From IMG/VR virus record IMGVR_UViG_3300036046_000008: a stretch of 48,745 nucleotides of DNA. One strand, given 5' to 3'. The notes below the pieces were generated by a model. That model was not told where the DNA came from and made no database searches. It worked only from the letters and a program-made list of their open reading frames with translations. The DNA comes from a virus. The translations under genes were made by a program, and so were the position numbers. Positions 1-48,745 of the stretch are shown in pieces (the stretch's first letter is position 1; each line of letters starts with the position of its first letter).

Positions 1-127
1 AGATTGACTACCGCCCCAAAAGCATCCACAGCGTATCTGGGGACTTCGGGGATCCTTCGAAAACCGGTCAACGAACCTCCTCGATCGGATGGAAATTAAC
101 GGTTTTGTAGGGTCGGGAAAAAGGGTC
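1..127. repeat. Window-end duplication: identical to 48619..48745 (terminal redundancy or circular-closure overlap)
   Basis: Direct reading: first 127 nt match last 127 nt exactly; repeat is truncated by the window edge so true length unknown. Confidence 0.9.
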
Positions 128-445
128 GGGAAAAACATCGATTTTCGACCCAAAAAGTTTTCTGGAGAACGTGTTTTTTTCTCTATTTTTTTTACTTTCC
201 AAAAAGTCTTAGAAAGGGGGTATATTTTTCCCGTTTTCCCGACCAAAATGTCCTAAATGTCCGATTTGTACACATTTTAGGCCCTCTTATTGACAATGAA
301 ACCCCCTGTTTTTGCACTAAAATTTTCAAATTTACCCTCTTTTTGGCCCTTTTTTGGCCAACATTTTTCCCGATTTCCCGACCAGTTTTCAAAAACGCTT
401 GGTATCTCATATTTTTCCCGACCCGAAATGTCCGTTTTGTCCTTT
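108..445. repeat. Non-coding AT-rich region with iteron-like repeats (GGGTCGGGAAAAA x2 direct; TTTTCCCGACC x3 inverted; AAATGTCC repeats)
   Basis: Seen in sequence at about 110-135, 228-252, 366-385, 413-442; no credible ORF; lies between last and first gene of the circularised map. Confidence 0.6.
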
Positions 446-508
446 TTTTAGCCTGGAAGATAAAACTAAAATGCCGTGTGGGCACCTTAGTTTTTTGGGG
501 GTGTGAGA

Positions 509-6523: not shown

Positions 6524-9500
6524 TTAGCTAACGAACGCTTCGAACGAGCCGAAACGTTCAATGGTGTCTACGGCGTCTTCGACCAGAGCTTGATAGAACG
6601 ATTTATCGATGTTCTGCCATTCCGATGGACCCAATTCCTTAACGACGGCGGCCTCCTTCCAGAAATATCCCTTTGTCCCAGACAGCGCGTACTTGCGCCC
6701 GTCTTTGACTCGGTAAAGCGTACCGCCGCCTGTGCCTTCGCGGACCGGAACGAAGCTTCCAGACCGTCCGACAAAGTGCATACGCTCGTCGCCGAAATCG
6801 ATGTAGATGGCGCCATTGGTTACCGAACGGACTTCGCACAAGTCTTGGAGGTGGATCTCGTCATGCGTGAACAAAGTTCGATAGACATATGGGTGTTGGA
6901 ATTGAGCGCCGACAGCGTCCCATTTGTCGCCTTCTCGGGCGATGTAAACGGCGTCGTTGACAAGACAGAATTTCTCGTATGTCTTCTCGTGGTCGAACGT
7001 GTACCCGTATCGCTCGCCAAATTCGGTTACAAACTGAATAATATCGGGCGTGGCATTAGGGATCTTGACTGAGTCCGTCTTAATATGCACTACCGGGAAG
7101 CCTTGTTCCTGGATGGCATGCTTGAGATCAATCATGAACAAAGCGCCACGCTTCGCGACGATGTTGTCTTTATTTCGAGGATCGCGGAACACCGTATCAA
7201 ATTTGGCACTGGTTAGGCCATAGACAATATTGATGACGATCTTCAACGCATGAGACAAGTCTTTGGCGGACTGGGTATCAGCGTCTGAGATAAAAGAAGC
7301 TAATTTTCCATCTAGCATCTGCGCCGCAGCAGAATAATCGCCTTTCTTAATGGCGAGCCGCGCGTCGAGCAGATCGTTAAAGTTCTTTGTATAAGGCCCG
7401 AACAAATTTAGAAGGCGAATAGACGTCGGGTGCATCGAGGCAACGTCAAGAACCGCAACATTCTCGTACATCCCTGGTTCAGCGTATACGTACCCGCCTT
7501 CACTAGGATCCTCGCCACGGTAAGAGCTTTTGCCGCCCTCGAAAATATAACCCGGAAACAACTCGCTGAGATCTGTATAGACGAATGAGCCTTGAGGAGA
7601 GGGGTCTCCCTCAAATACGATTCGCGCCGTGTGCTTCTGCGTAGTGTCGTTGACGCTGAGCCCGCTGATCGAAGCGAGAATCTGTCTCGCGACAAAGTCC
7701 TGGGCCCTGGACTCCGCGACTTTCTCCGTTGCAACGACATCGTTGGCGCAATAGTCGGCAACTTCGATCCAACGCTCCTCTGGCACCGGCTCGTCCCACG
7801 GGTGGTCGAGCTCTTTGTGGACGATGCCGAGCTCGATCTGGAACTTCTTCAGTCCTTGCTTCTTGGACGAGTAGTCGTACACATCGGCGTAAGATAGCCC
7901 ATACGCCTCGCCGAAGGTGGCGTTGCGGTTCTTGTCCACAATCAAAGCTTGACTGAGTCTATACAAACGCTCATTGTCGTAACCCAAGAACGCAGCGTAC
8001 AAAATATGGTTGTCATAGCGTCTGTTGTTGAACCCCACGAGCTTTTGAGCAAGAAGAGGTTCGATGTCATCGGGCTTCGGATTGATCATCCGCACAACAG
8101 GGTGATCGCCCTCAAACTTCCAACACAACACGAACAGGTTAGGGTACACCTCAACGTCGAAATATACGAGCGCGTCGCCTTCTCCGGAGATAGAGACTGT
8201 ACGATCCTCCGACTTAAACTTCATCTCCCTGACAAGCCGCAGACATTCCAACGGTCGGTTCGTGCTGTTGTTGGCGAAAGCCACGATCGAGGACCGCAGA
8301 TCTGTGACATCATAGCTCAAGTCAGAAGAATATGCGTCATCCAAGACCTTCTTGATGAAGTCGATTGACGACTTCGTGTTAGGATGAATCTCCTTTCTCA
8401 AATTTCGAGCAATCATCTCTCGAAGCCCGCGCTCAGATTTGATCTGTTTGACATCGATCATCTTTCTCTCCTTCATAGGCAACCCGCTTGTGATTTGCGC
8501 AACTTCATGGTCGTTGCATCGCGACAGCCTACGGCGAAGAGACGAGTCCCCGAGCAAAGTTTTAATCTCAATGCCCGGAGAGTACTCGTTATCTAGTTCT
8601 TTGATGTCGCCGTTGTAAATATAATGCAGATGCAGCCCTTTCCCGCTCATACTCAACTCAGTATAGGTTGGCGGCCACGCACTAGCAGCTTCAAGATTCT
8701 TATCGAGGGACTTCTCTCCACTTTCATCGCGCAAATCGAAATCGATCACAATATGATTCTTAGGAATCTTGACGTAATGCACCAGCGAAGTGTCCAGATC
8801 GGTCAGGGTGGTCTTGACTAAGCCCCAACGCTTACTAGGCTTACCTGTTTCTGTGGCGTACTGAGCCGGCATGTCTGCCAAAATATCGTCAAGCAACGAT
8901 CGGCGTTGAGCCAGATTGATTGAGAACGATTTAGGCGACGACGGAGCGACCCCAGTCAACTTCTCCAGCTTGAAGTCTTTGAACAAGCTGTACACCTCCT
9001 GACCGTCGACCATCGTTCTCTCTACGAAATTCTCGTAGTAATTCATCATCTCGTTACGAAATATCTGCATCTGCATCGGTTTGTTGTTTGACTCGGTGCA
9101 GAATTCCTTATACAAAGCATAGGCCCTTTTAAGGGTAATCCCGTCCGGCGCTTTCAACTCGGGCAAATATGCTTCGACGAAGTTGTAGAACACGTTGGTT
9201 GAATACATCATCTTCGTGGGGCGGTAGTTGTCATAATAATTCTTGCCCATGCTTTGATACACTCGAAGACAGTGCGATGCAATAGCGCCGAGTTCAAATT
9301 CGATCCTCGACATCAACACTTGATAATGATCAAACGTGTGCAAATTTCCGGTTGGTTGGACATCGATCAGTCGCCGCAATAAACCAGACCGAGAGTCACT
9401 AATCTTGACGGGGTTGTTAGTGCCCATAAACAGAAACGTGTTGATGCGTACATTATACTGAGATTTATACTTCTCGTTGATCACCATATTCTCATGAGAG

Positions 9501-10225
9501 ACCAACGAATTCAACCTGGTGTTGTCCTCAATCCGGGACAAATCGCCATCGTGTTGGATTCCCACCAACGGGTTCTCTTTGAAGACCTCCAAGGCAAAAG
9601 AGGTCCCGTTGGACCCGAGCGCCTTCGCGTCAAAGACGTTCGTATAGCCGGAGAATAGACGCTCAATAATATGAAGGACTGTGGATTTACCGGTCTTCGC
9701 GGAGCCATAAAGCACAATAAACTTCTGAATGTCGACAGAGTCTCCCGCCACAACGGAGCCGATTGCCCACTCAATCTTAGCGAGCTCCTCCTCAGAATAT
9801 AGCTTTCCAACCAGTTCGTCCCATGCGTCGTGTGCACCATCCTCTAGGGCGTAGTCAAGACGATGGCTGATGTAGTCGGTCTTCTTGACTTTCGTATTGG
9901 AGAACGCCAGGAACTGGTTCAACTGATGATAATTGTTCTCGTTGTTCCGCACATAGCGCAAAAATGCGTCATGCGACCCGGTAGAGTGCTCTTCCATCCA
10001 GCGAATATAAGGCTGATCAAACTCCGCGGCGACTCGGCGGAGCTCTGCATCGACAAGCTCAACCACCCTGTAAATATCCGTCGACCAGAGCCCCGCTTCC
10101 TCGTCCCAGATGGCATAAAACTTCCCGCCGCGCGTCATCAAGTCTCGCGACTTACGACTGAGGAATTCAGGGTAGACTTCGGTCTTCTTTCCGTTCTTTC
10201 GAACCTTTGCCTTGAAGAAGTCCAC
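6524..10225 (-). CDS. Multidomain replicase: P-loop (SF3-helicase-like) + primase-polymerase (AEP-like) + family B DNA polymerase with 3'-5' exonuclease
   Basis: 1233 aa; Walker A GSAKTGKST and LFMGTNNP; AEP-like VIDFDLRD and SGKGLHLHY; exo motifs FDVEV, GFNNRRYD, YCAND; pol motifs DVASMHPT, KIVINIVYG, KTDS; GTG start with GAAGGAGGGAG RBS. Confidence 0.7.
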   Translation of the reverse strand: MDFFKAKVRKNGKKTEVYPEFLSRKSRDLMTRGGKFYAIWDEEAGLWSTDIYRVVELVDAELRRVAAEFDQPYIRWMEEHSTGSHDAFLRYVRNNENNYHQLNQFLAFSNTKVKKTDYISHRLDYALEDGAHDAWDELVGKLYSEEELAKIEWAIGSVVAGDSVDIQKFIVLYGSAKTGKSTVLHIIERLFSGYTNVFDAKALGSNGTSFALEVFKENPLVGIQHDGDLSRIEDNTRLNSLVSHENMVINEKYKSQYNVRINTFLFMGTNNPVKISDSRSGLLRRLIDVQPTGNLHTFDHYQVLMSRIEFELGAIASHCLRVYQSMGKNYYDNYRPTKMMYSTNVFYNFVEAYLPELKAPDGITLKRAYALYKEFCTESNNKPMQMQIFRNEMMNYYENFVERTMVDGQEVYSLFKDFKLEKLTGVAPSSPKSFSINLAQRRSLLDDILADMPAQYATETGKPSKRWGLVKTTLTDLDTSLVHYVKIPKNHIVIDFDLRDESGEKSLDKNLEAASAWPPTYTELSMSGKGLHLHYIYNGDIKELDNEYSPGIEIKTLLGDSSLRRRLSRCNDHEVAQITSGLPMKERKMIDVKQIKSERGLREMIARNLRKEIHPNTKSSIDFIKKVLDDAYSSDLSYDVTDLRSSIVAFANNSTNRPLECLRLVREMKFKSEDRTVSISGEGDALVYFDVEVYPNLFVLCWKFEGDHPVVRMINPKPDDIEPLLAQKLVGFNNRRYDNHILYAAFLGYDNERLYRLSQALIVDKNRNATFGEAYGLSYADVYDYSSKKQGLKKFQIELGIVHKELDHPWDEPVPEERWIEVADYCANDVVATEKVAESRAQDFVARQILASISGLSVNDTTQKHTARIVFEGDPSPQGSFVYTDLSELFPGYIFEGGKSSYRGEDPSEGGYVYAEPGMYENVAVLDVASMHPTSIRLLNLFGPYTKNFNDLLDARLAIKKGDYSAAAQMLDGKLASFISDADTQSAKDLSHALKIVINIVYGLTSAKFDTVFRDPRNKDNIVAKRGALFMIDLKHAIQEQGFPVVHIKTDSVKIPNATPDIIQFVTEFGERYGYTFDHEKTYEKFCLVNDAVYIAREGDKWDAVGAQFQHPYVYRTLFTHDEIHLQDLCEVRSVTNGAIYIDFGDERMHFVGRSGSFVPVREGTGGGTLYRVKDGRKYALSGTKGYFWKEAAVVKELGPSEWQNIDKSFYQALVEDAVDTIERFGSFEAFVS

Positions 10226-16117: not shown

Positions 16118-16283
16118 TCCTCTCCATCATCTGTTCTAATAGTCGAATTTCACGTTCACGCTTTATTTGGTAATAATATGCTCGCGTCAATAAGACCGTG
16201 ACAAACGAGCATAAGAGAAACGACGTACTGAGAAAGATATATGCCGCTAAAACCCAGATGTCGCCTGGAACCGACGATCTCAC
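16101..16283 (-). CDS. small membrane protein
   Basis: 60 aa; GTG start after AGGAGGA RBS; hydrophobic core. Confidence 0.5.
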   Translation of the reverse strand: MRSSVPGDIWVLAAYIFLSTSFLLCSFVTVLLTRAYYYQIKREREIRLLEQMMERSDDVD

Positions 16284-16399
16284 TGGTCCTCCTGTAGTTG
16301 TCGGCGGTGACGCAGTTCGATCAGATCTTCAGCCATGAGCGACAGGAAATATGGCCCGAACATCAACAGAAGAATAATGGCGGAAATGACGTCGCCCAT
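16280..16399 (-). CDS. small hydrophobic protein (39 aa, not in track)
   Basis: Manual translation MGDVISAIILLLMFGPYFLSLMAEDLIELRHRRQLQEDQ; GAAGGGAAG RBS; stop overlaps next start as GTGA; coordinates approximate. Confidence 0.35.
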   Translation of the reverse strand: MGDVISAIILLLMFGPYFLSLMAEDLIELRHRRQLQEDQ

Positions 16400-16415
16400 T
16401 TGTGCTTCCCTTCAA

Positions 16416-16456
16416 ACAAAAAAAAGAAAACCTTAGCCCCGTGTTAGGGGGCTAAA
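16416..16456 (-). terminator. Intrinsic-terminator-like hairpin (conserved-loop family)
   Basis: Plus A-run then TTAGCCCC-GTGTTA-GGGGCTAA; just downstream of stop of 16461..16643. Confidence 0.5.
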
Positions 16457-16460
16457 GTCA

Positions 16461-16643
16461 TCAGACCTCCAGGTCCTCAAGAGCAGCCTTGAGCTTGGAG
16501 ACGGTCTTGTTCGTCTTGGTCTTCAGATCAGCAACCTCTTGCTCAACCTGCTGCTTACCCTTGACGGCTGCGTATGCAATGCCCAGGGTGGCGGCGAGGT
16601 TGGTAGTGGTCACGATCAGGAGTGCGACGGTGGAGCCGTTCAT
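16461..16643 (-). CDS. small membrane protein
   Basis: Track ORF trimmed to ATG at 16643 (MNGSTVALL...); the track N-terminus is translated promoter sequence. Confidence 0.55.
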   Translation of the reverse strand: MNGSTVALLIVTTTNLAATLGIAYAAVKGKQQVEQEVADLKTKTNKTVSKLKAALEDLEV

Positions 16644-16659
16644 TTCAATCTTCCTTTCG

Positions 16660-16696
16660 GTAGGGGGTCTCATTATACAGCATGCGATTCTCGCGA
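16660..16696 (-). promoter_or_regulatory. Conserved promoter-like element copy
   Basis: Minus strand TCGCGAGAATCGCATGCTGTATAATGAGACCCCCTAC then CGAAAGGAAG. Confidence 0.6.
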
Positions 16697-16709
16697 TGCC
16701 ATCGGCTCC

Positions 16710-16744
16710 AAAAACAAAACCATAGATCCTTGTGGGGATCTATA
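16710..16744 (-). terminator. Intrinsic-terminator-like hairpin (conserved-loop family)
   Basis: Plus ATAGATCC-TTGTGG-GGATCTAT with flanking A-run. Confidence 0.5.
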
Positions 16745-16760
16745 GCTTTAGAACTACTGG

Positions 16761-16904
16761 TTAACGGGTCTTGGCCAAACGGCGCCGAGCAACGATGAGC
16801 AGTCCAACGACGGCCGCGCCGTACGCAACAGTGATAGTGTTGTGAACGGTCGGGCTCTGGTTGTAGTGGTCAACGTTCTTCTGGCAGAGTTCAGTCCAGG
16901 TCAT
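16761..16904 (-). CDS. small protein with C-terminal hydrophobic segment (47 aa, not in track)
   Basis: Manual translation MTWTELCQKNVDHYNQSPTVHNTITVAYGAAVVGLLIVARRRLAKTR; AAGGAGAAG RBS; coordinates approximate. Confidence 0.4.
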   Translation of the reverse strand: MTWTELCQKNVDHYNQSPTVHNTITVAYGAAVVGLLIVARRRLAKTR

Positions 16905-16920
16905 GGTCTTCTCCTTAAGT

Positions 16921-16955
16921 AGTGGGTCTCATTATATGGCATGCAATTTTCGCGA
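16921..16955 (-). promoter_or_regulatory. Conserved promoter-like element copy
   Basis: Minus strand TCGCGAAAATTGCATGCCATATAATGAGACCCACT. Confidence 0.55.
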
Positions 16956-16961
16956 CCTAAC

Positions 16962-16995
16962 CAAGACTAAGACTCCGTGTGGGAGTCTTGTCTTA
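16962..16995 (-). terminator. Hairpin (conserved-loop family)
   Basis: Plus AAGACTCC-GTGTGG-GAGTCTT. Confidence 0.4.
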
Positions 16996-17001
16996 AGACG
17001 G

Positions 17002-17121
17002 CTATCGAACGACAGCCATGTCTTCGATCCGGCGGGTTGCGCGGGTCTGGCGACGCTTCTCTCTAAGGTCTTCGTCAAAGAGATAGGTCACCACAGTCGC
17101 GCGAGCGGCGGAAAGGGTCAT
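17002..17121 (-). CDS. small basic protein (39 aa, not in track)
   Basis: Manual translation MTLSAARATVVTYLFDEDLREKRRQTRATRRIEDMAVVR; GAAAGG RBS; coordinates approximate. Confidence 0.35.
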   Translation of the reverse strand: MTLSAARATVVTYLFDEDLREKRRQTRATRRIEDMAVVR

Positions 17122-17138
17122 GGTCTTTCCTTTCATTA

Positions 17139-17175
17139 GTAGGGGGTCTCATTATACTACGTGTTATTTCCGCGA
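17139..17175 (-). promoter_or_regulatory. Conserved promoter-like element copy
   Basis: Minus strand TCGCGGAAATAACACGTAGTATAATGAGACCCCCTAC. Confidence 0.55.
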
Positions 17176-17235
17176 CCTTCCTACAATTTTTGCTCCGGGG
17201 AATTTTTAGATTTTCAATTTATCCGAAGTGTGGGC

Positions 17236-17268
17236 AAAAGCTAAAACTCCTTGTAGGGAGCTTTAGCC
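17236..17268 (-). terminator. Hairpin (conserved-loop family)
   Basis: Plus CTAAAACTCC-TTGTAG-GGAGCTTTAG; downstream of 17296..17580. Confidence 0.45.
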
Positions 17269-17295
17269 TTTACCTTCAATCGTCCGGGGTTACGG

Positions 17296-17580
17296 TCAGC
17301 GCAGAATACGCAAGAAAGGCAGAGCCTTCGAGGTGATGACGTGAGTTCGTTCATAACCGACAATCACCAGAATTCCGGCAAGGTTACCAAGTACGGCAGC
17401 CCAAGCGTCCGGGCTCACGCGCTGAGGGCGGTCAATTTCCTTCAGCGCATAAAGCTTCGTTAGCTGGTCTGCCATCGCGGCATACTCGTCAGAGTCTGAT
17501 GTCAAGCCGGCCATTTCCGAGAAAATCTCGTCAATAGCCTCATCAAGCTTCGACTTCTCTTTAGTCTTACGGCGCAACAT
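17296..17580 (-). CDS. hypothetical protein
   Basis: Track ORF trimmed to ATG at 17580 (MLRRKTKEK...); upstream codons are translated promoter sequence. Confidence 0.55.
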   Translation of the reverse strand: MLRRKTKEKSKLDEAIDEIFSEMAGLTSDSDEYAAMADQLTKLYALKEIDRPQRVSPDAWAAVLGNLAGILVIVGYERTHVITSKALPFLRILR

Positions 17581-17593
17581 GGTGCTCCTTTCG

Positions 17594-17630
17594 GTAGAGG
17601 GTGTCATTATATGACGTGTATCAATCGCGG
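17594..17630 (-). promoter_or_regulatory. Conserved promoter-like element copy (variant)
   Basis: Minus strand CCGCGATTGATACACGTCATATAATGACACCCTCTAC then GAAAGGAGCACC ATG. Confidence 0.5.
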
Positions 17631-17824
17631 TCAGACCGCTCTACCGAAAATATAACGCGTTTCTTATGCTCCATGTCTAACGGATCGACATTAAGCTCCA
17701 AACTGAACAACTTTTTACCATCATGTTCAGTGATCAAAATAACACCGTCTGTTTTGCGCCGATGATAATACAAATATAACAGATTCAGACCGAGAAGCAC
17801 TAGAATTACTAGATACATTTCCAC
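17621..17824 (-). CDS. small membrane protein
   Basis: 67 aa; N-terminal TM helix; GTG start after TAGGAG. Confidence 0.45.
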   Translation of the reverse strand: MEMYLVILVLLGLNLLYLYYHRRKTDGVILITEHDGKKLFSLELNVDPLDMEHKKRVIFSVERSDRD

Positions 17825-17833
17825 GCTAAACTC

Positions 17834-19018
17834 CTATAGGTATGTAAACGCCGGATATGCCTCAAACCCCTCAGGGGTATCAGTACGAATATACTCAGTA
17901 ACACGAGCACGCACCATAGGCGTATATCGGCCACGGACCGAGACAATATCCCCCAGAAAATAATCCTGCCCGTAGACCCATTGCGATCGTGTAGACACCT
18001 CGCCGTCGACAGCTTGCAGTTTTAGATGGGCTTCGAGAATACGTTCGCCTTCGTCAACATTATGCTCGTTCCACTCAGTGTTATCATACCCTTCTTCGGG
18101 ATCGCCCCCGTCAATATAAAACACTCGACGACTAAGACCGGTTAGCTGCCCTTCCGGGCGACGAGCAATAACGATGCCGTTATTAACAAGAATCGCTGCC
18201 TCGTTATGGTAAATATCCATAGAGAAGGTATAGTTCGGCCGGATCAAATCGTCGATCTCAGTGTCAAAGATCACAATGGCGTACGTAGTCTGGCCATGGC
18301 TCTTGTTAAATCCGCGATACACGTCCCACCGCAGGGCAGTAATGTTTGTATTTGTCGCGCCCGTAACAGCACCTGTAGACGAATCAATATCTATTACGCG
18401 CCCTGAGGAAGGCGGTCGGATCGTCCGAAAACCATAAGGGCGATACCGTAAAAATTTCTGAACTTCGGGCAGCGCTGGGCCCGGACGAATAAACCGTTGC
18501 TTGATCGGCCCCGCGTTGCCGCTCGTAATATCGGTGGTGCTATCCGTGACGACAGTGTTTAAGACTCCATCGTTCGAATTCTTCGCGCTCACAACCGGAG
18601 GCTGCCGAGTATAGTCATACGTGGACCGTTCATGTAGGGCATGGTAAATCAATCGTAAAGCTGATGCAAGCGGTGAGTGCGAGAATGCTTTGTACCGCTG
18701 AGCTCGCTTTCTCCCCAAGACGCGATGATTCAGAAATGACGTGATAGATCTCCCAGACACAATAAGCTTCTCAATGCCGGCGTCATCCGTTTCAATGCGG
18801 ATATTCTCGACCATCATTACCTCAGTTGTCTGGCGCAGACTGACTAGGGTTTCCATGGGCAACACAGCCAAAGTCTTACGAACCGCATACGTCTCTAGCT
18901 GAAACTCGCCAGGCTCGGCGAAGCGCTCAGTCCAGATCAATGAATGATAATGCGTAATCGGATCGCCCACTGGCAAAAAGGTCGACGAGCTCAAAACAAG
19001 GAAATCTAAAGTAGACAT
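17834..19018 (-). CDS. minor tail protein (tail-tip, Tal-like position)
   Basis: 394 aa; second gene after tape measure; start abuts upstream stop. Confidence 0.5.
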   Translation of the reverse strand: MSTLDFLVLSSSTFLPVGDPITHYHSLIWTERFAEPGEFQLETYAVRKTLAVLPMETLVSLRQTTEVMMVENIRIETDDAGIEKLIVSGRSITSFLNHRVLGRKRAQRYKAFSHSPLASALRLIYHALHERSTYDYTRQPPVVSAKNSNDGVLNTVVTDSTTDITSGNAGPIKQRFIRPGPALPEVQKFLRYRPYGFRTIRPPSSGRVIDIDSSTGAVTGATNTNITALRWDVYRGFNKSHGQTTYAIVIFDTEIDDLIRPNYTFSMDIYHNEAAILVNNGIVIARRPEGQLTGLSRRVFYIDGGDPEEGYDNTEWNEHNVDEGERILEAHLKLQAVDGEVSTRSQWVYGQDYFLGDIVSVRGRYTPMVRARVTEYIRTDTPEGFEAYPAFTYL

Positions 19019-32489: not shown

Positions 32490-33195
32490 TACCTGACGAA
32501 GCCGACCAGGTGACACTAGCAGCGGGAATTGTTCCGGCAGAGGAAATAGGCGCCTGCGCGGCAACCGCATGGGCGCTCGATCCAGACGACGCGGCAAGAG
32601 CCTGATTTATTAAGGTGTGACCGGCTGGCAGAGTAACGGACGTCGACTTATTGTCTTTGCGAACCCAAAGTCTAACCAACAGCCCTTCGCCGTCGGCCGT
32701 GACCGCTGGGGCGGGCGCTACCGTGTTCGTATCTGGCTGGTTTTGGGTAGATCGAACAAACGACGTCAGGTTACGCACAGCCACGCAAACGTGGCTACAT
32801 TTTCGACTAGCAGAAAGAGACCAAGACGGCATCTCAAGGCCGTCAAAATATGTTGCTACATAAAGCGCTCTTTGGGTGGTCCCCTGGTTTGAAAGCAAAT
32901 TATCCTCAGTCCAATCCGAATGGTCGGACGTTACGGTCACACCACCCGAAGAATCAGATACTGACATCCCGCACACCAACCAGTCTCCATCCTGCAGACC
33001 GGAAGGAAGATCGGGGGTATAAGATGTTAAAAAGTTTGTGGCAGACGCAGACGAGCCTACAACGATAGGCTCGGTAGGAGGCTCCGGCTCTTCGCCGCTC
33101 TCATAAATAAGATTAGTCCCCACATAAGCCTTTAGAAGAGGAGAAGTTCCCGCGTACATTGCGGTCACACTCGAACTACCAGCACGAACAGTCAT
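32458..33195 (-). CDS. hypothetical Ser/Thr-rich protein
   Basis: 245 aa; ATGA overlap with terminase stop. Confidence 0.5.
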   Translation of the reverse strand: MTVRAGSSSVTAMYAGTSPLLKAYVGTNLIYESGEEPEPPTEPIVVGSSASATNFLTSYTPDLPSGLQDGDWLVCGMSVSDSSGGVTVTSDHSDWTEDNLLSNQGTTQRALYVATYFDGLEMPSWSLSASRKCSHVCVAVRNLTSFVRSTQNQPDTNTVAPAPAVTADGEGLLVRLWVRKDNKSTSVTLPAGHTLINQALAASSGSSAHAVAAQAPISSAGTIPAASVTWSASSGNGTGWSIAIA

Positions 33196-34937
33196 TCGAA
33201 CAACCCCTTATGAACTTTGTAAGCTACGTAGGCATCCAGCAAGGCCGAGAAATTATCGATTTTTGCATCTTTTCGCTTCTTGTAGAGCTTGCGATTGCCG
33301 TTCGTGTCTTCCAATGTTACCGCATTGCCCATCGCAAACGACATCAGTAACTCATCAAATATAAGCAATCGCTCATCCGCAAGATTTCGTAACTCGCCAA
33401 GCGGAACTGATTCGGTACGGACGCCCTGCGGAACTTTCTCCACACCAAACGGACCATTTTCTGAGATCCATCGATCAATGAACTCTTTCGCATTATACGG
33501 GTCATACCCTACCGCCCGAATATCGTAGTCTTGAGCGGCAATAAACTCATCGAGGTCTTCATAAACTTCCATCAGATCAAGAACCGCTCCATCTAAAACA
33601 TGGAGACTACCCTCAGAAATAAACTCGTCGTACTTCAGACGCATTGCCGCTGGAAGCTTCATCATTGTTAAAGAGGTAATATAACTACGAGTCTTGACGC
33701 CCCACGAACCATCCCGTAACGGGAATAAAAACGTAAAAGCACAGAAATCGTCGCCTTGGGAAAGATCGACGCCCATACTACAGGCCATCTTCCAGAAAGT
33801 CCGCGACGAATGCGGCAACGTCTGTTCGTAAGTGAAGAAGTAAGTGAACCCCTCCATGGGAATACCAAAACGCTTCGCTAAAATATCGTTTCGAGCAGCG
33901 GGCACCTTTTCAGCTCGCTCTACATCCAAATGATACGTGTCATAGCTTACCGTGATGCCAAGATTGGGGTTAGCTTTTACCCAAAGCTCCGGGTGATTTA
34001 CCTCGTCGAGAGTATCAAGTTTATAATGCCAAATCGAAACATGAGGCGCATAATACTCCCCTTTGAGAATTGATGCAAGTTCAAGCTTAACAGTGTCGCC
34101 CGAGCCGTTCCGCACCGTTCCTTCAGAACTAATCGCAACGATAACATAATCGTCAATTTTAGACGCACCTTGCTCCAGCGCCCCGATAATATCTTCGCGC
34201 AAATCGCCGGACAACCACTCGTCAATTGTATTAACTTTCGATCGAAGCCCTTGAACTTTATCAATGGTCATCGGGCGAATCTCGAGAAGCGAACCCGTCA
34301 AGAAATTCTCGATCCCGCGTTTGGTTGCGACGAGTTTCTGTCTGAGAGCACGATTACCAGTAGTGTTCTGAAGCGAGCCCTCGGTCAAAAACTTGAACAA
34401 AGGGCCACGGGCCCGAACAATGGACGTACGGATAGGAGACAAGACCTCTTCGGCTTGTTTCATCGTAAGCGCAGTTGTCACTTGATGCGTAGTGGTTGGG
34501 TCCACATTTAAAAAATAACTTTGAATGACGGAGGCGTACATAGACTTGGCTGCGCCCCGCGCCACGATCAAATACTGTTTATTTGTCAAGCGTTTCTTGA
34601 TAACCTTATGAACATAGTGACCGCCGCGCCCGTCTTCGTTAGGCTGATAGACGGTGCGATCCACAAAATAATACCATCCTAGTAACTGTTCAACCCAAAC
34701 TTTAAAAGAAAGCATAAGCCACAAATTACGCCCATCAGTCAGAGTCAGTTCATTCTCGCAATAACGAATAAAGCCCTCGACCGGCCCGTCGTCGTAATAA
34801 ATATTAGGGTTTGCAATAAGCTCGTCAATCCGGTTCATCTCAAGCGAAATTTCCCGATTCACAGGGATCTCGCCTCGGAGCACCGCGGATCTAAATTCAT
34901 CATAATATACGGGAACCGCAGTATTAGACAAGCTCAT
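33192..34937 (-). CDS. terminase large subunit
   Basis: 581 aa; N-terminal ATPase-like region (LIVARGAAKS) and C-terminal nuclease-like region; AGGTGGTGA RBS. Confidence 0.75.
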   Translation of the reverse strand: MSLSNTAVPVYYDEFRSAVLRGEIPVNREISLEMNRIDELIANPNIYYDDGPVEGFIRYCENELTLTDGRNLWLMLSFKVWVEQLLGWYYFVDRTVYQPNEDGRGGHYVHKVIKKRLTNKQYLIVARGAAKSMYASVIQSYFLNVDPTTTHQVTTALTMKQAEEVLSPIRTSIVRARGPLFKFLTEGSLQNTTGNRALRQKLVATKRGIENFLTGSLLEIRPMTIDKVQGLRSKVNTIDEWLSGDLREDIIGALEQGASKIDDYVIVAISSEGTVRNGSGDTVKLELASILKGEYYAPHVSIWHYKLDTLDEVNHPELWVKANPNLGITVSYDTYHLDVERAEKVPAARNDILAKRFGIPMEGFTYFFTYEQTLPHSSRTFWKMACSMGVDLSQGDDFCAFTFLFPLRDGSWGVKTRSYITSLTMMKLPAAMRLKYDEFISEGSLHVLDGAVLDLMEVYEDLDEFIAAQDYDIRAVGYDPYNAKEFIDRWISENGPFGVEKVPQGVRTESVPLGELRNLADERLLIFDELLMSFAMGNAVTLEDTNGNRKLYKKRKDAKIDNFSALLDAYVAYKVHKGLFE

Positions 34938-42245: not shown

Positions 42246-42653
42246 CTACCAAAGCTTAGTATCATTAGGACGGCGGGGAACATAGGGTTTCGGGAGTAAA
42301 TTCCGATCGCCGTAATGGATTGCGTTATGAGTATCATGAGTCGTAGTGATCAAGAACTCCGGATCCAAAACCTCGTCCCGTCCGTGAACTAAATCTTCGA
42401 CAGTGACTGGGTTCATATGATGAATGTAAGCACGCTCATAAATCTCATACCCGACGACACCAAGATCACAACCCAGATCTCTTGCAATGACGTGGGTCCG
42501 AAGTGCTCGCCATTGAGCCGACATGTAGAAGCGTTGATTCAACCAACGATCGTGTCCGAACGTAGACAACCCAACAGATCCACGCAGAACCAAATAGTCA
42601 AATCTATCTTCAAACTGACTCATCTGAATCAGCTCGGTATAACGTCTAACCAT
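42246..42653 (-). CDS. HNH endonuclease
   Basis: IHHMNP ... HDTHNAIHYG HNH-like motif; track ORF 42246..42710 trimmed to ATG with GAGG RBS. Confidence 0.55.
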   Translation of the reverse strand: MVRRYTELIQMSQFEDRFDYLVLRGSVGLSTFGHDRWLNQRFYMSAQWRALRTHVIARDLGCDLGVVGYEIYERAYIHHMNPVTVEDLVHGRDEVLDPEFLITTTHDTHNAIHYGDRNLLPKPYVPRRPNDTKLW

Positions 42654-42975
42654 TGTATGCCTCGTCAGTGTGACCGGAATACGACCGCATAGCGTCGAGA
42701 ACGCTTTCATAGAGCTCTTCTACTCGCTTGGCCGACTCCAACAACTCCGTCTTAGAATCTAGCAACTTGTTCTCACGGGCCAGCTTTTCCTGTTCCAAGG
42801 CTTCACGAGTGGACCCAAGACGCAGATAGTGAGTAATCACTTGCGCGGTGGCAGTACCATCTCGGAGCTGCTTCTCAGCGAGATTAGTAGCTAACAACAC
42901 GAGGCGCTGCTCTTGTTCTTCAGGAGTCCGTGCCGGCGGGCGCCGCGGTTCCGACTCCTTGCGGCGTTGCGCCAT
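42646..42975 (-). CDS. hypothetical protein (charged, coiled-coil)
   Basis: Track ORF 109 aa. Confidence 0.45.
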   Translation of the reverse strand: MAQRRKESEPRRPPARTPEEQEQRLVLLATNLAEKQLRDGTATAQVITHYLRLGSTREALEQEKLARENKLLDSKTELLESAKRVEELYESVLDAMRSYSGHTDEAYNG

Positions 42976-44046: not shown

Positions 44047-44267
44047 GGAGCCCCTCCTTAAAAGTTTTGAGGCACTTCGACAGGGGTTTTACACACTTTC
44101 TACGACCAAAAATCAACTTTTAAGGACCGTCAAGTCTGCGAAGAAAGCTTTTGGCATAGTTTGGCCCCACTTTTACCCCCTCAAACGACCCGCCGGAGAA
44201 ATTTTAGGGACGCGGCGATATGGAGGGGGTCTCGGTTTTGGCGGGCCCTCCCCCCTATTTTAATTTT

Positions 44268-48064: not shown

Positions 48065-48152
48065 CGAACCTCCCTCGCCCGACGAAAGAGCAAAATCAAA
48101 AAGGCTTTATCTAGGTCCTTTATCTATTATATGCGAGGTATGCGCCGGGAGG

Positions 48153-48689
48153 TTATATGCTTTTTTGGTCAGATCGCGCGAAGAACGCAAAACGGTAAGA
48201 AGTTGGGAACGCCGGCTCGCCTTCTTGAATAGACGCAAAAAGATCATGAAGGAGGATCCCGTAGAACATGCACGTGATCCAAGCGTTCCCCACAACCTCG
48301 TTCGTGTCCAAGTTGATCACTTGTTTACGTCGCACCCACGAATATGGCCAGAACGTATATAGACCAAGACGATGACCTTGATGGTGGTACTTCATCGCGA
48401 ACCATCGAGGGCGCCAAGACAAATTATCGACATGCGAGTTCGATAGGTCGTAATCGTGATGTATGACACTATCAAAGTATTCGGACGGCGGGGGATCTAA
48501 GAAAGCGCGTGCCACAAGAAACGCAACCGGGCAAATGCGTCGCTCACCGTTGACATACAAACCCACATAGTAACGACCCTGTTGGTTTGAGCAAGGACGG
48601 AGCAGTCGATCTGTGTCGAGATTGACTACCGCCCCAAAAGCATCCACAGCGTATCTGGGGACTTCGGGGATCCTTCGAAAACCGGTCAA
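48153..48689 (-). CDS. HNH homing endonuclease (NUMOD4-like N-terminus)
   Basis: 178 aa; IPEVPRYAVDAFGAVVN and HHDYDLSNSHVDNL; TTG start after GAGGAGG RBS; 5' end lies inside the terminal duplication. Confidence 0.6.
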   Translation of the reverse strand: MTGFRRIPEVPRYAVDAFGAVVNLDTDRLLRPCSNQQGRYYVGLYVNGERRICPVAFLVARAFLDPPPSEYFDSVIHHDYDLSNSHVDNLSWRPRWFAMKYHHQGHRLGLYTFWPYSWVRRKQVINLDTNEVVGNAWITCMFYGILLHDLFASIQEGEPAFPTSYRFAFFARSDQKSI

Positions 48690-48745
48690 CGAACCTCCTC
48701 GATCGGATGGAAATTAACGGTTTTGTAGGGTCGGGAAAAAGGGTC

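Follow-up and report, generated by a model that had tools for sequence, protein, structure and literature searches.

A conserved repeat-rich non-coding region as a candidate iteron-type replication origin in a supergroup of phages

The viral DNA of IMG/VR record IMGVR_UViG_3300036046_000008 (48,745 nt, the whole of which was analysed and is referred to as the window) contains a single large non-coding gap, at positions 72-508, where short direct and inverted repeats surround an AT-rich core. On sequence grounds, we propose, with about an even chance of being right, that this region is the iteron-type origin of lytic DNA replication of a cos-type siphovirus. We infer that protein binding, unwinding and initiation would take place at the region: a phage-encoded sequence-specific protein would bind the repeats that flank the core and melt or distort it, and the replication proteins encoded just upstream (a primase/SF3-helicase/polymerase fusion, an ssDNA-binding protein and a helicase) would then load there. 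Iteron-type origins have been reviewed previously (PMC4980987; PMC7466680). Every credible gene of the genome lies on the minus strand, and the region is described in this gene orientation unless the plus strand is named.

The original prediction had placed about 400 nt of non-coding DNA at 108-508, and the interval obtained was slightly wider (437 nt). All the repeat elements that it listed were recovered, with coordinates off by only a few bases. The tandem repeat described at 110-135 was found as GGGTCGGGAAAAA at 110-122 and 123-135, and the repeated blocks correspond to AAATGTCC, which occurs exactly at 246, 255 and 426 and nowhere else in the window. Of the three inverse copies, two are exact (TTTTCCCGACC at 234-244 and 413-423) and the third (373-383) is ATTTCCCGACC, with one mismatch. 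Half-copies TTTTTCCCG(A) were located at 224-233 and 363-372, where the half-unit reads CGGGAAAAAT in gene orientation.

These repeats are far beyond chance and are confined to the region. All four copies of the exact 11-mer GGTCGGGAAAA in the unique genome fall inside it, and the word CGGGAAA was found seven times in its 437 nt, where its frequency outside the region would predict 0.06 copies, and seven times in the remaining 48,181 nt. An iteron origin should show at least three copies of a short repeat at one locus; the region holds seven copies of (GGT)CGGGAAAA in addition to the sub-repeats of motifs B and C. The (GGT)CGGGAAAA(AT) units are combined with GGACA(T/A)TT units in three composite clusters (442-411, 383-363 and 263-224). 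Read in gene orientation, the elements follow the order of a hairpin, the three clusters (with the GGCCAAAAA units at 359-340 between them), the A/T core, a degenerate iteron, two inverted iterons and the start of an HNH endonuclease gene. The A/T tracts of the iterons on both flanks point at the core.

The core overlaps the weakest duplex of the genome. The least stable and most AT-rich segments of 100, 200 and 400 bp all start at 130-153 (z 3.4-3.7), and the least stable 100-bp segment (130-229) overlaps the core. An AT-rich, easily unwound segment, as looked for in an origin, therefore adjoins the repeats in the window, and the 100-bp test also held in Arthrobacter phage Salk. The replication module (primase/polymerase at 6524-10225 and helicase at 914-2062) directly precedes the region in gene orientation, and the upstream replication proteins also include an ssDNA-binding protein.

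The conservation of the region was examined among the relatives of the phage. Searches with tblastn using the 893-aa RNA-polymerase-like protein and the Cas4-type exonuclease, both encoded downstream of the region, returned the same 250 phage records, at below 60% and below 64% identity, respectively. Their hosts are Arthrobacter, Gordonia, Streptomyces, Rhodococcus, Microbacterium, Curtobacterium, Lactococcus and Faecalibacterium, and they correspond to the "supercluster" of actinobacteriophages and a Lactococcus/Faecalibacterium group of Koert et al. (bioRxiv 10.1101/842583), who make no mention of the non-coding region. Our literature search found no paper describing it. Scans of IMG/VR and metagenomes yielded no exonuclease above 65% amino-acid identity, and a DNA search of the region against phage records matched only the neighbouring tRNA. 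Exact-protein look-ups showed that the region is identical in three other assemblies, which give no informative variation because the copies are identical.

We compared 17 lineages, namely Scap1, Circum, Darby, Salk, Count, Namo, AddiRose, Secretariat, ReqiPoco6, FP_oengus, P118, 1706 and the metagenomic loci L003, L004, L005, L012 and L036. A non-coding gap of 215-714 nt was present upstream of the polymerase-like gene or the nuclease cassette in 17 of the 17. Most lineages carry short repeats of their own, usually in both orientations, which include GTGGCCAAAA, CTGCCCACTTTTG, TTGCCACTTTTG, TGACAAA, TTGACGAATCTGA and TCACCAGTTTT. The dominant repeat is lineage-specific, being GGTCGGGAAAA in the window and TGGCCAAAA, TGCCCACTTTTG, TTGCCACTTTTG, TGACAAA or TCACCAGTTTT in others. 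Reading by eye showed, for about a dozen lineages, an A/T centre that has the repeats around it and junctions of the AAAAACTTT...AAAGTTTTT type at its borders. Locus L036 mirrors the window: seven forward units come first, then an AT centre, a pair of inverted units and a promoter. Confinement of the repeats was also seen elsewhere: TGCCCACTTTTG occurs four times in the Salk region, which holds the least stable 100-bp segment of that genome, and once outside it; seven or eight of the 12 TGGCCAA copies of Circum are inside its region; and all six TCGGGA copies of the 11.6-kb locus of 1706 fall within its 448-nt gap. The Lactococcus phages 1706 and P118 both have the repeat (CT)TCGGGA(AAA), whose core TCGGGA(AAA) is also that of the window iteron, and the iteron core TCGGGAAAA is common to the window and 1706. 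Lack of conservation in related phages had been named as the finding that would speak against a function; the comparison came out in favour of function, since position and layout were kept in every relative and TCGGGAAAA recurs in 1706.

Evidence that the regions are homologous across lineages, as opposed to merely analogous, was mixed. Part of the region is 76% identical in DNA between Circum and Darby, while the flanking exonuclease and polymerase-like gene are 67% and 64% identical; this excess over the flanking genes indicates purifying selection on the non-coding DNA. Local alignments of the window region exceeded shuffled sequences for Namo (z 6.7), the core of L012 (window 189-148; z 5.5, reached by 0 of 200 shuffles), the core of Salk (window 216-179; z 2.7) and 1706 (7 of 300 shuffles), all in the same orientation, and most other pairwise alignments fell within the shuffle range. 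The number of repeated 7-mers shared with 1706 was reached by 271 of 1000 shuffles, is confounded by A-rich words and was discarded.

Several results weigh against an origin. An nhmmer profile built from the cores of 11 relatives found the right place in the window at an E value of 7.6, which is not significant. The spacing of the iterons is irregular (starts at 424, 383, 372, 244 and 233, and at 134 and 121 for the inverted copies), and helical phasing of the A-tracts (10-11.5 bp) was not above that of dinucleotide shuffles (137 of 500). No convincing DnaA box was identified in the region, the best being one 8/9 match (TTGTACACA, 266-274); matches with two or fewer mismatches numbered five, with 1.3 expected. 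The region of Circum is not the least stable segment of its genome. The GC skew of the window is uniformly negative and its cumulative curve monotonic, with no turning point; it carries no information here, every gene being on the same strand. Finally, the region is always upstream of the same operon or gene, a position that fits transcriptional control equally.

Such control is the main rival explanation, and we consider it appreciably less probable than an origin. The repeats would be operators at which a DNA-binding protein of the phage controls the HNH, VRR-Nuc, Cas4 exonuclease and RNA-polymerase-like genes, with the two inverted copies near the downstream gene as the operator proper; the polymerase-like protein, which has helix-turn-helix domains, could be this protein and thus regulate itself. 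The position immediately upstream of the cassette is consistent with this, as are the relatives without an HNH gene, where the right-hand repeats abut the conserved TATAAT promoter, and phage 1706, where the region is directly upstream of the polymerase-like gene. The terminator-like hairpin that precedes the region would also suit an operon boundary. In the window and six other lineages, however, the 0.5-kb HNH gene separates the repeats from the cassette TATAAT, which argues against the repeats being simply the operator of the cassette promoter. Syntenic HNH homologues (30-35% identity) are present in six relatives and absent from others. Furthermore, at least seven sites over 320 bp together with an easily melted core exceed what an operator needs.

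The promoters of the phage likewise argue against control as the sole role. A promoter family of 9-10 near-identical copies of about 50 nt was identified, with the structure TCGCGAAAATTGCATGCCG-TATAAT-GAGACCCCCTAC-(N)-GAAAGGA and without a canonical -35 element. It occurs in Salk, too, and matches a motif of 50 bp that was reported for Gordonia phage Vardy (PMC9671010). No site of this family (TCGCGAAAAT...TATAATGAGACCCCC) in gene orientation lies within 72-508. The upstream element TCGCGAAAAT is conserved across lineages and is not lineage-specific, and the likeness of the iteron (TCGGGAAAAAT) to it was not significant (36 of 300 shuffles). A scan for sigma-70-type promoters was weak, with three hits over bases 1-1000 against 0.9 expected, two of the three inside the region. 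On the plus strand, antisense to all genes, TTGACAATGAAACCCCCTG (291-308) looks like the -10 element of the promoter family and the part downstream of it (TATAATGAGACCCCCTAC). It was recovered as an inverted repeat with 798-810, and may represent a decayed copy or else a divergent promoter within the region.

One further iteron of Salk bears on control. The sole TGCCCACTTTTG outside the Salk region is inverted and lies near the left end, upstream of gene 2 (locus L046, 540-600) and of the first left-arm operon, which speaks for control. This hints at a second site of action for the iteron-binding protein, where the left-arm operon of Salk begins; unlike in Salk, no left-end iteron copy was found in the window. 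The original prediction had offered an origin or an early control region among its readings. Architecture, uniqueness, low stability and conservation favour a protein-binding cis element, most simply an origin; origin and control would not be mutually exclusive roles, as iteron plasmids illustrate.

The 54 open reading frames (ORFs) yielded no initiator of the Rep, O or DnaA type, and neither an integrase nor a partition protein. Two phage proteins are candidates for binding the iterons: the primase/SF3-helicase/polymerase fusion, and the 893-aa polymerase-like protein, whose gene is 1.5 kb downstream of the region. The 893-aa protein is the signature gene product of the phage supergroup. It matched phrog_4291 ("RNA-dependent RNA polymerase") with 1280 bits and gave weak Pfam matches to helix-turn-helix and RNA-dependent RNA polymerase (RdRP) families, mostly below the curated cut-offs. 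It has a GADFDGD motif and conserved N- and C-terminal helix-turn-helix domains, and is of the two-barrel YonO/RdRP-like type; RNA-polymerase motifs and terminal helix-turn-helix domains were predicted in this protein by Koert et al. (bioRxiv 10.1101/842583). The WhiB-like protein previously suggested as a binder (42646-42975, minus strand) matched nothing in Pfam at E≤0.01 and a single family in PHROGs, phrog_4259, of unknown function.

The linkage of the region to this protein allows a third explanation, which we regard as rather improbable. The repeats would be the recognition platform of a two-barrel RNA polymerase fused to helix-turn-helix domains, which would bind them through these domains and begin transcribing in the A/T core. 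Whether synthesised early or brought in by the virion, the enzyme could produce pre-early or late messages, or an RNA primer or R-loop for replication, which would then be coupled to transcription. In every lineage the region tracks the polymerase-like gene, even in the two phages in which the nucleases are elsewhere: in 1706 (L048, 7635-8082) it is directly upstream of the polymerase-like gene and the nuclease genes abut the helicase, and in P118 (L039, 4465-4890) it is two genes upstream, with VRR-Nuc and Cas4 elsewhere. The arrangement in 1706 shows that the element travels with the polymerase-like gene at the right end and not with the helicase or the nucleases. The distance of the region from the right cos end, which is 4-5 kb in every complete relative, would also suit such an enzyme, as would its two conserved helix-turn-helix domains. 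A note in the ReqiPoco6 record calls the 1706 homologue a structural protein, a second-hand and unverified annotation that would place it in the virion. The RNA-polymerase activity of the family is predicted (bioRxiv 10.1101/842583), and neither a solved structure nor a homologue of the 893-aa protein was found in the PDB.

The recognition helices gave a mixed picture for the same explanation. The residues following the conserved ST[LV] in the C-terminal recognition helix are [HY]DA in Circum, Count and FP_oengus, which carry TGGCCAA, and N[NS] in Darby, Salk and AddiRose, which carry TGCCCAC. The helix residues thus track the repeat type in two independent triads, and the identities among these proteins are star-like (42-61%). 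Conversely, the window and L003 have identical C-terminal recognition helices and different main repeats, and the window and 1706 have TCGGGAAAA in common and different recognition helices. Both pairs contradict a simple code between helix and repeat.

The original prediction had also offered a packaging or terminase recognition site, and this was contradicted by the genome ends; that the region is a cos or pac site is barely credible. Ten complete relatives share a conserved terminus, (A)GGGGGGAGGGGGTCTCGCAAAAnnnACCCCCCCTCTGCATCGCCGnCCT-3', annotated in the ReqiPoco6 record as the 3' cos overhang. Its homologue in the window is the predicted cos site at 44257-44206, 4.4 kb downstream of the region, where it closely follows the small gene after the polymerase-like one. 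The sequence after it, CCCTAAAATTTCTCCGGCGGG, resembles the left ends of Salk and Circum, and the physical genome end is therefore predicted at about 44206. This puts the region within the right arm, 4.4-4.9 kb in, as is also the case in the relatives, and the terminase gene (33192-34937) is about 14 kb away from it. What speaks for packaging is generic, namely repeats and AT-rich DNA in the largest non-coding gap at arbitrary contig ends. The window is a circular assembly in which bases 1-127 equal 48619-48745 through a 127-nt k-mer overlap, so that the unique genome is 48,618 bp. The contig-end repeat is the overlap of a circular or concatemeric assembly and not a biological terminal repeat. 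The earlier description of the region as flanked by the first and last genes of the circularised map thus reflects the circular assembly and not the physical ends. A differently rotated JGI contig of equal length also exists (3300021518, Ga0224722_1000099).

A structured non-coding RNA or a small protein is another very unlikely explanation of the region. The RNA fold of the whole region had a z of -1.9, which could point to such an RNA; however, this signal stems from the inverted iterons, and core segments folded no better than shuffles. No Rfam family reached its gathering score inside the region, and a sub-threshold match to sraL (19.9 bits, cut-off 39) fell on the hairpin at 462-494. In favour of a protein, the stop codon of the upstream gene is overlapped, as GTGA, by a 106-aa ORF on the minus strand (192-512). 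This ORF was rejected as a gene, since it matched no family and did not resemble the equally long ORF of the L003 region, and most relatives have no ORF at the equivalent place. An attP or partition site was also considered and rejected, as neither an integrase nor ParAB was found among the 54 ORFs (Pfam, E≤1e-4 or 1e-2); the relatives are described as lytic and without an integrase (PMC9671010).

The features of the region and its surroundings are listed in Table 1. The hairpin is a possible intrinsic terminator of the replication-gene operon, and was missed by a simple terminator scan. Three HNH endonuclease genes were found in the window, all on the minus strand (48153-48689, 2044-2355 and 42246-42710). 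The second most AT-rich stretch, 16118-17834, has no ORF of at least 80 aa except 17296-17607 and contains four promoters of the family described above. A series of very small early genes is probably encoded there, comparable to the arrays of membrane-protein genes described for clusters AM and AU.

Table 1. Positions of the repeats, core, flanking genes and other elements in the window (sequences in gene orientation unless stated)
Feature	Position	Strand	Evidence
Primase/polymerase fusion, 1233 aa (primase/DUF5906 (SF3-type NTPase)/polymerase)	10225-6524	-	family matches
Helicase gene	2062-914	-	
tRNA-Lys	906-833	-	Rfam match passing gathering score
89-aa gene, upstream neighbour of the region, stop codon 511-509	778-509	-	
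Hairpin, 14-bp stem and 5-nt loop, just past the upstream gene	462-494	-	RNA fold -16.4 kcal/mol, z -5.4, 0/200 shuffles as stable
Motif B pair, GGACAAAAC + GGACATTTC (AAATGTCC on plus strand)	426-442	-	
Iteron A copy 1, GGGTCGGGAAAAAT	411-424	-	repeat search
Block AAAAATATGAGATACCAAGCGTTTTTGAAAA, aligns with core of Streptomyces phage Namo region	386-416	-	z 6.7, 0/200 shuffles
Block AAAACTGGTCGGGAAATCGGGAAAAATGTTGGCCAAAAA, aligns with iteron block of Lactococcus phage 1706 region	350-389	-	score 30, reached by 7/300 shuffles
Iteron A copies 2 and 3, GGTCGGGAAAT + CGGGAAAAAT	363-383	-	repeat search
Motif C, GGCCAAAAA twice, resembles TGGCCAAAA repeats of Circum, Count and FP_oengus	340-359	-	includes alignment to Circum
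Motif B pair, GGACATTT twice	246-262	-	
Iteron A copies 4 and 5, GGTCGGGAAAA + CGGGAAAAAT	224-244	-	repeat search
A/T-tract core, ...CTTTCTAAGACTTTTTGGAAAGTAAAAAAAATAGAGAAAAAAACACGTTCTCCAGAAAACTTTTTGGG..., about 85 bp, between forward and inverted iterons	141-223	.	stability scan, local alignments
Degenerate iteron-like copy, GGGTCGAAAATCGA	139-152	-	by reading sequence
Two tandem AGGGTCGGGAAAA on plus strand (iteron A copies 6 and 7), opposite in orientation to copies 1-5, 38-64 nt before HNH start	109-134	+	repeat search
Ribosome-binding site GAGGAGG (82-76) and TTG start of HNH gene	69-82	-	
HNH endonuclease gene, TTG start	71-69, continues 48689-48153	-	family assigned by PHROGs
TATAAT of VRR-Nuc/Cas4 exonuclease/RNA-polymerase-like operon promoter	48126-48131	-	equivalent conserved in relatives
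VRR-Nuc-type endonuclease	48064-47768	-	
Cas4-type exonuclease	47796-47236	-	
RNA-polymerase-like protein, 893 aa	47221-44540	-	
Predicted cos site, TAGGGGGGAGGGCCCGCCAAAACCGAGACCCCCTCCATATCGCCGCGTCCCT, homologue of relatives' terminus	44206-44257	-	sequence match
Promoter family, TATAAT starts	17611, 17156, 16936, 16677, 13551, 4671, 2441, 2387, 813; weaker 48131	-	

The lytic replication origins of mycobacteriophages are essentially uncharacterised (PMC7157519). The same applies to those of actinobacteriophages. Our analysis marks out one conserved, easily recognised cis element across a supergroup of about 250 sequenced phages, and fixes the likely physical genome ends of the contig (cos at about 44206). 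As many of these phages are cultivable, origin and operator can be told apart directly by experiment. Because the element is always linked to the gene of the polymerase-like protein, identifying its binder could reveal the role of that protein; if the repeats do recruit this polymerase, they would represent a new type of origin/initiator pair, common to about 250 phages of Actinobacteria and Firmicutes. Practical uses could include phage-derived replicons and "origin-decoy" phage resistance in dairy lactococci.

Among known systems, close parallels are the iteron origins, such as the lambda ori bound by O and the origins of pSC101, P1, F and R6K bound by Rep. As in these, several short direct repeats lie beside an easily melted AT-rich stretch, the inverted copies near the downstream gene resemble the inverted half-iterons that act as rep operators, and the layout is conserved among lineages that each have a repeat sequence of their own. 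The differences are the Rep/O-type initiator, which was not found among the ORFs, the lack of convincing DnaA boxes in the region, and the iterons themselves, which are irregularly spaced and 10-14 bp long, whereas known ones are about 19-22 bp and in helical register. The lambda ori is furthermore inside the O gene, while the region is intergenic.

In satellite phage P4, ori and crr are bound by the alpha primase-helicase. The region resembles P4 in its short, octamer-like direct and inverted repeats and in a replication protein that is a primase/SF3-helicase fusion, in the window the 1233-aa fusion, a candidate binder; unlike P4, the window has no second, crr-like copy of the repeats. At the primary origin of T7, promoters for the phage RNA polymerase are followed by an AT-rich region. 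If the polymerase-like protein recognises the repeats, the likeness would be the linkage of a phage RNA polymerase gene with an AT-rich element at which replication could be primed by transcription; the polymerase here is two-barrel, YonO/RdRP-like and not T7-like, and its activity is predicted.

The origins of lactococcal phages (c2, and the "per" elements of phi31 and phi50) were demonstrated by plasmid replication or phage-interference assays, and are likewise AT-rich and intergenic with direct and inverted repeats. Lactococcal phages 1706 and P118 appear to carry a homologous region with TCGGGA repeats, there a putative origin. Further counterparts are the regions of the supercluster itself. 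Their dominant repeat differs by lineage; they lie in the same place as seen from the right cos end and from the cassette of VRR-Nuc, Cas4 and polymerase-like genes, have the same layout, and show local similarity to the window region in Namo, L012, Salk and 1706.

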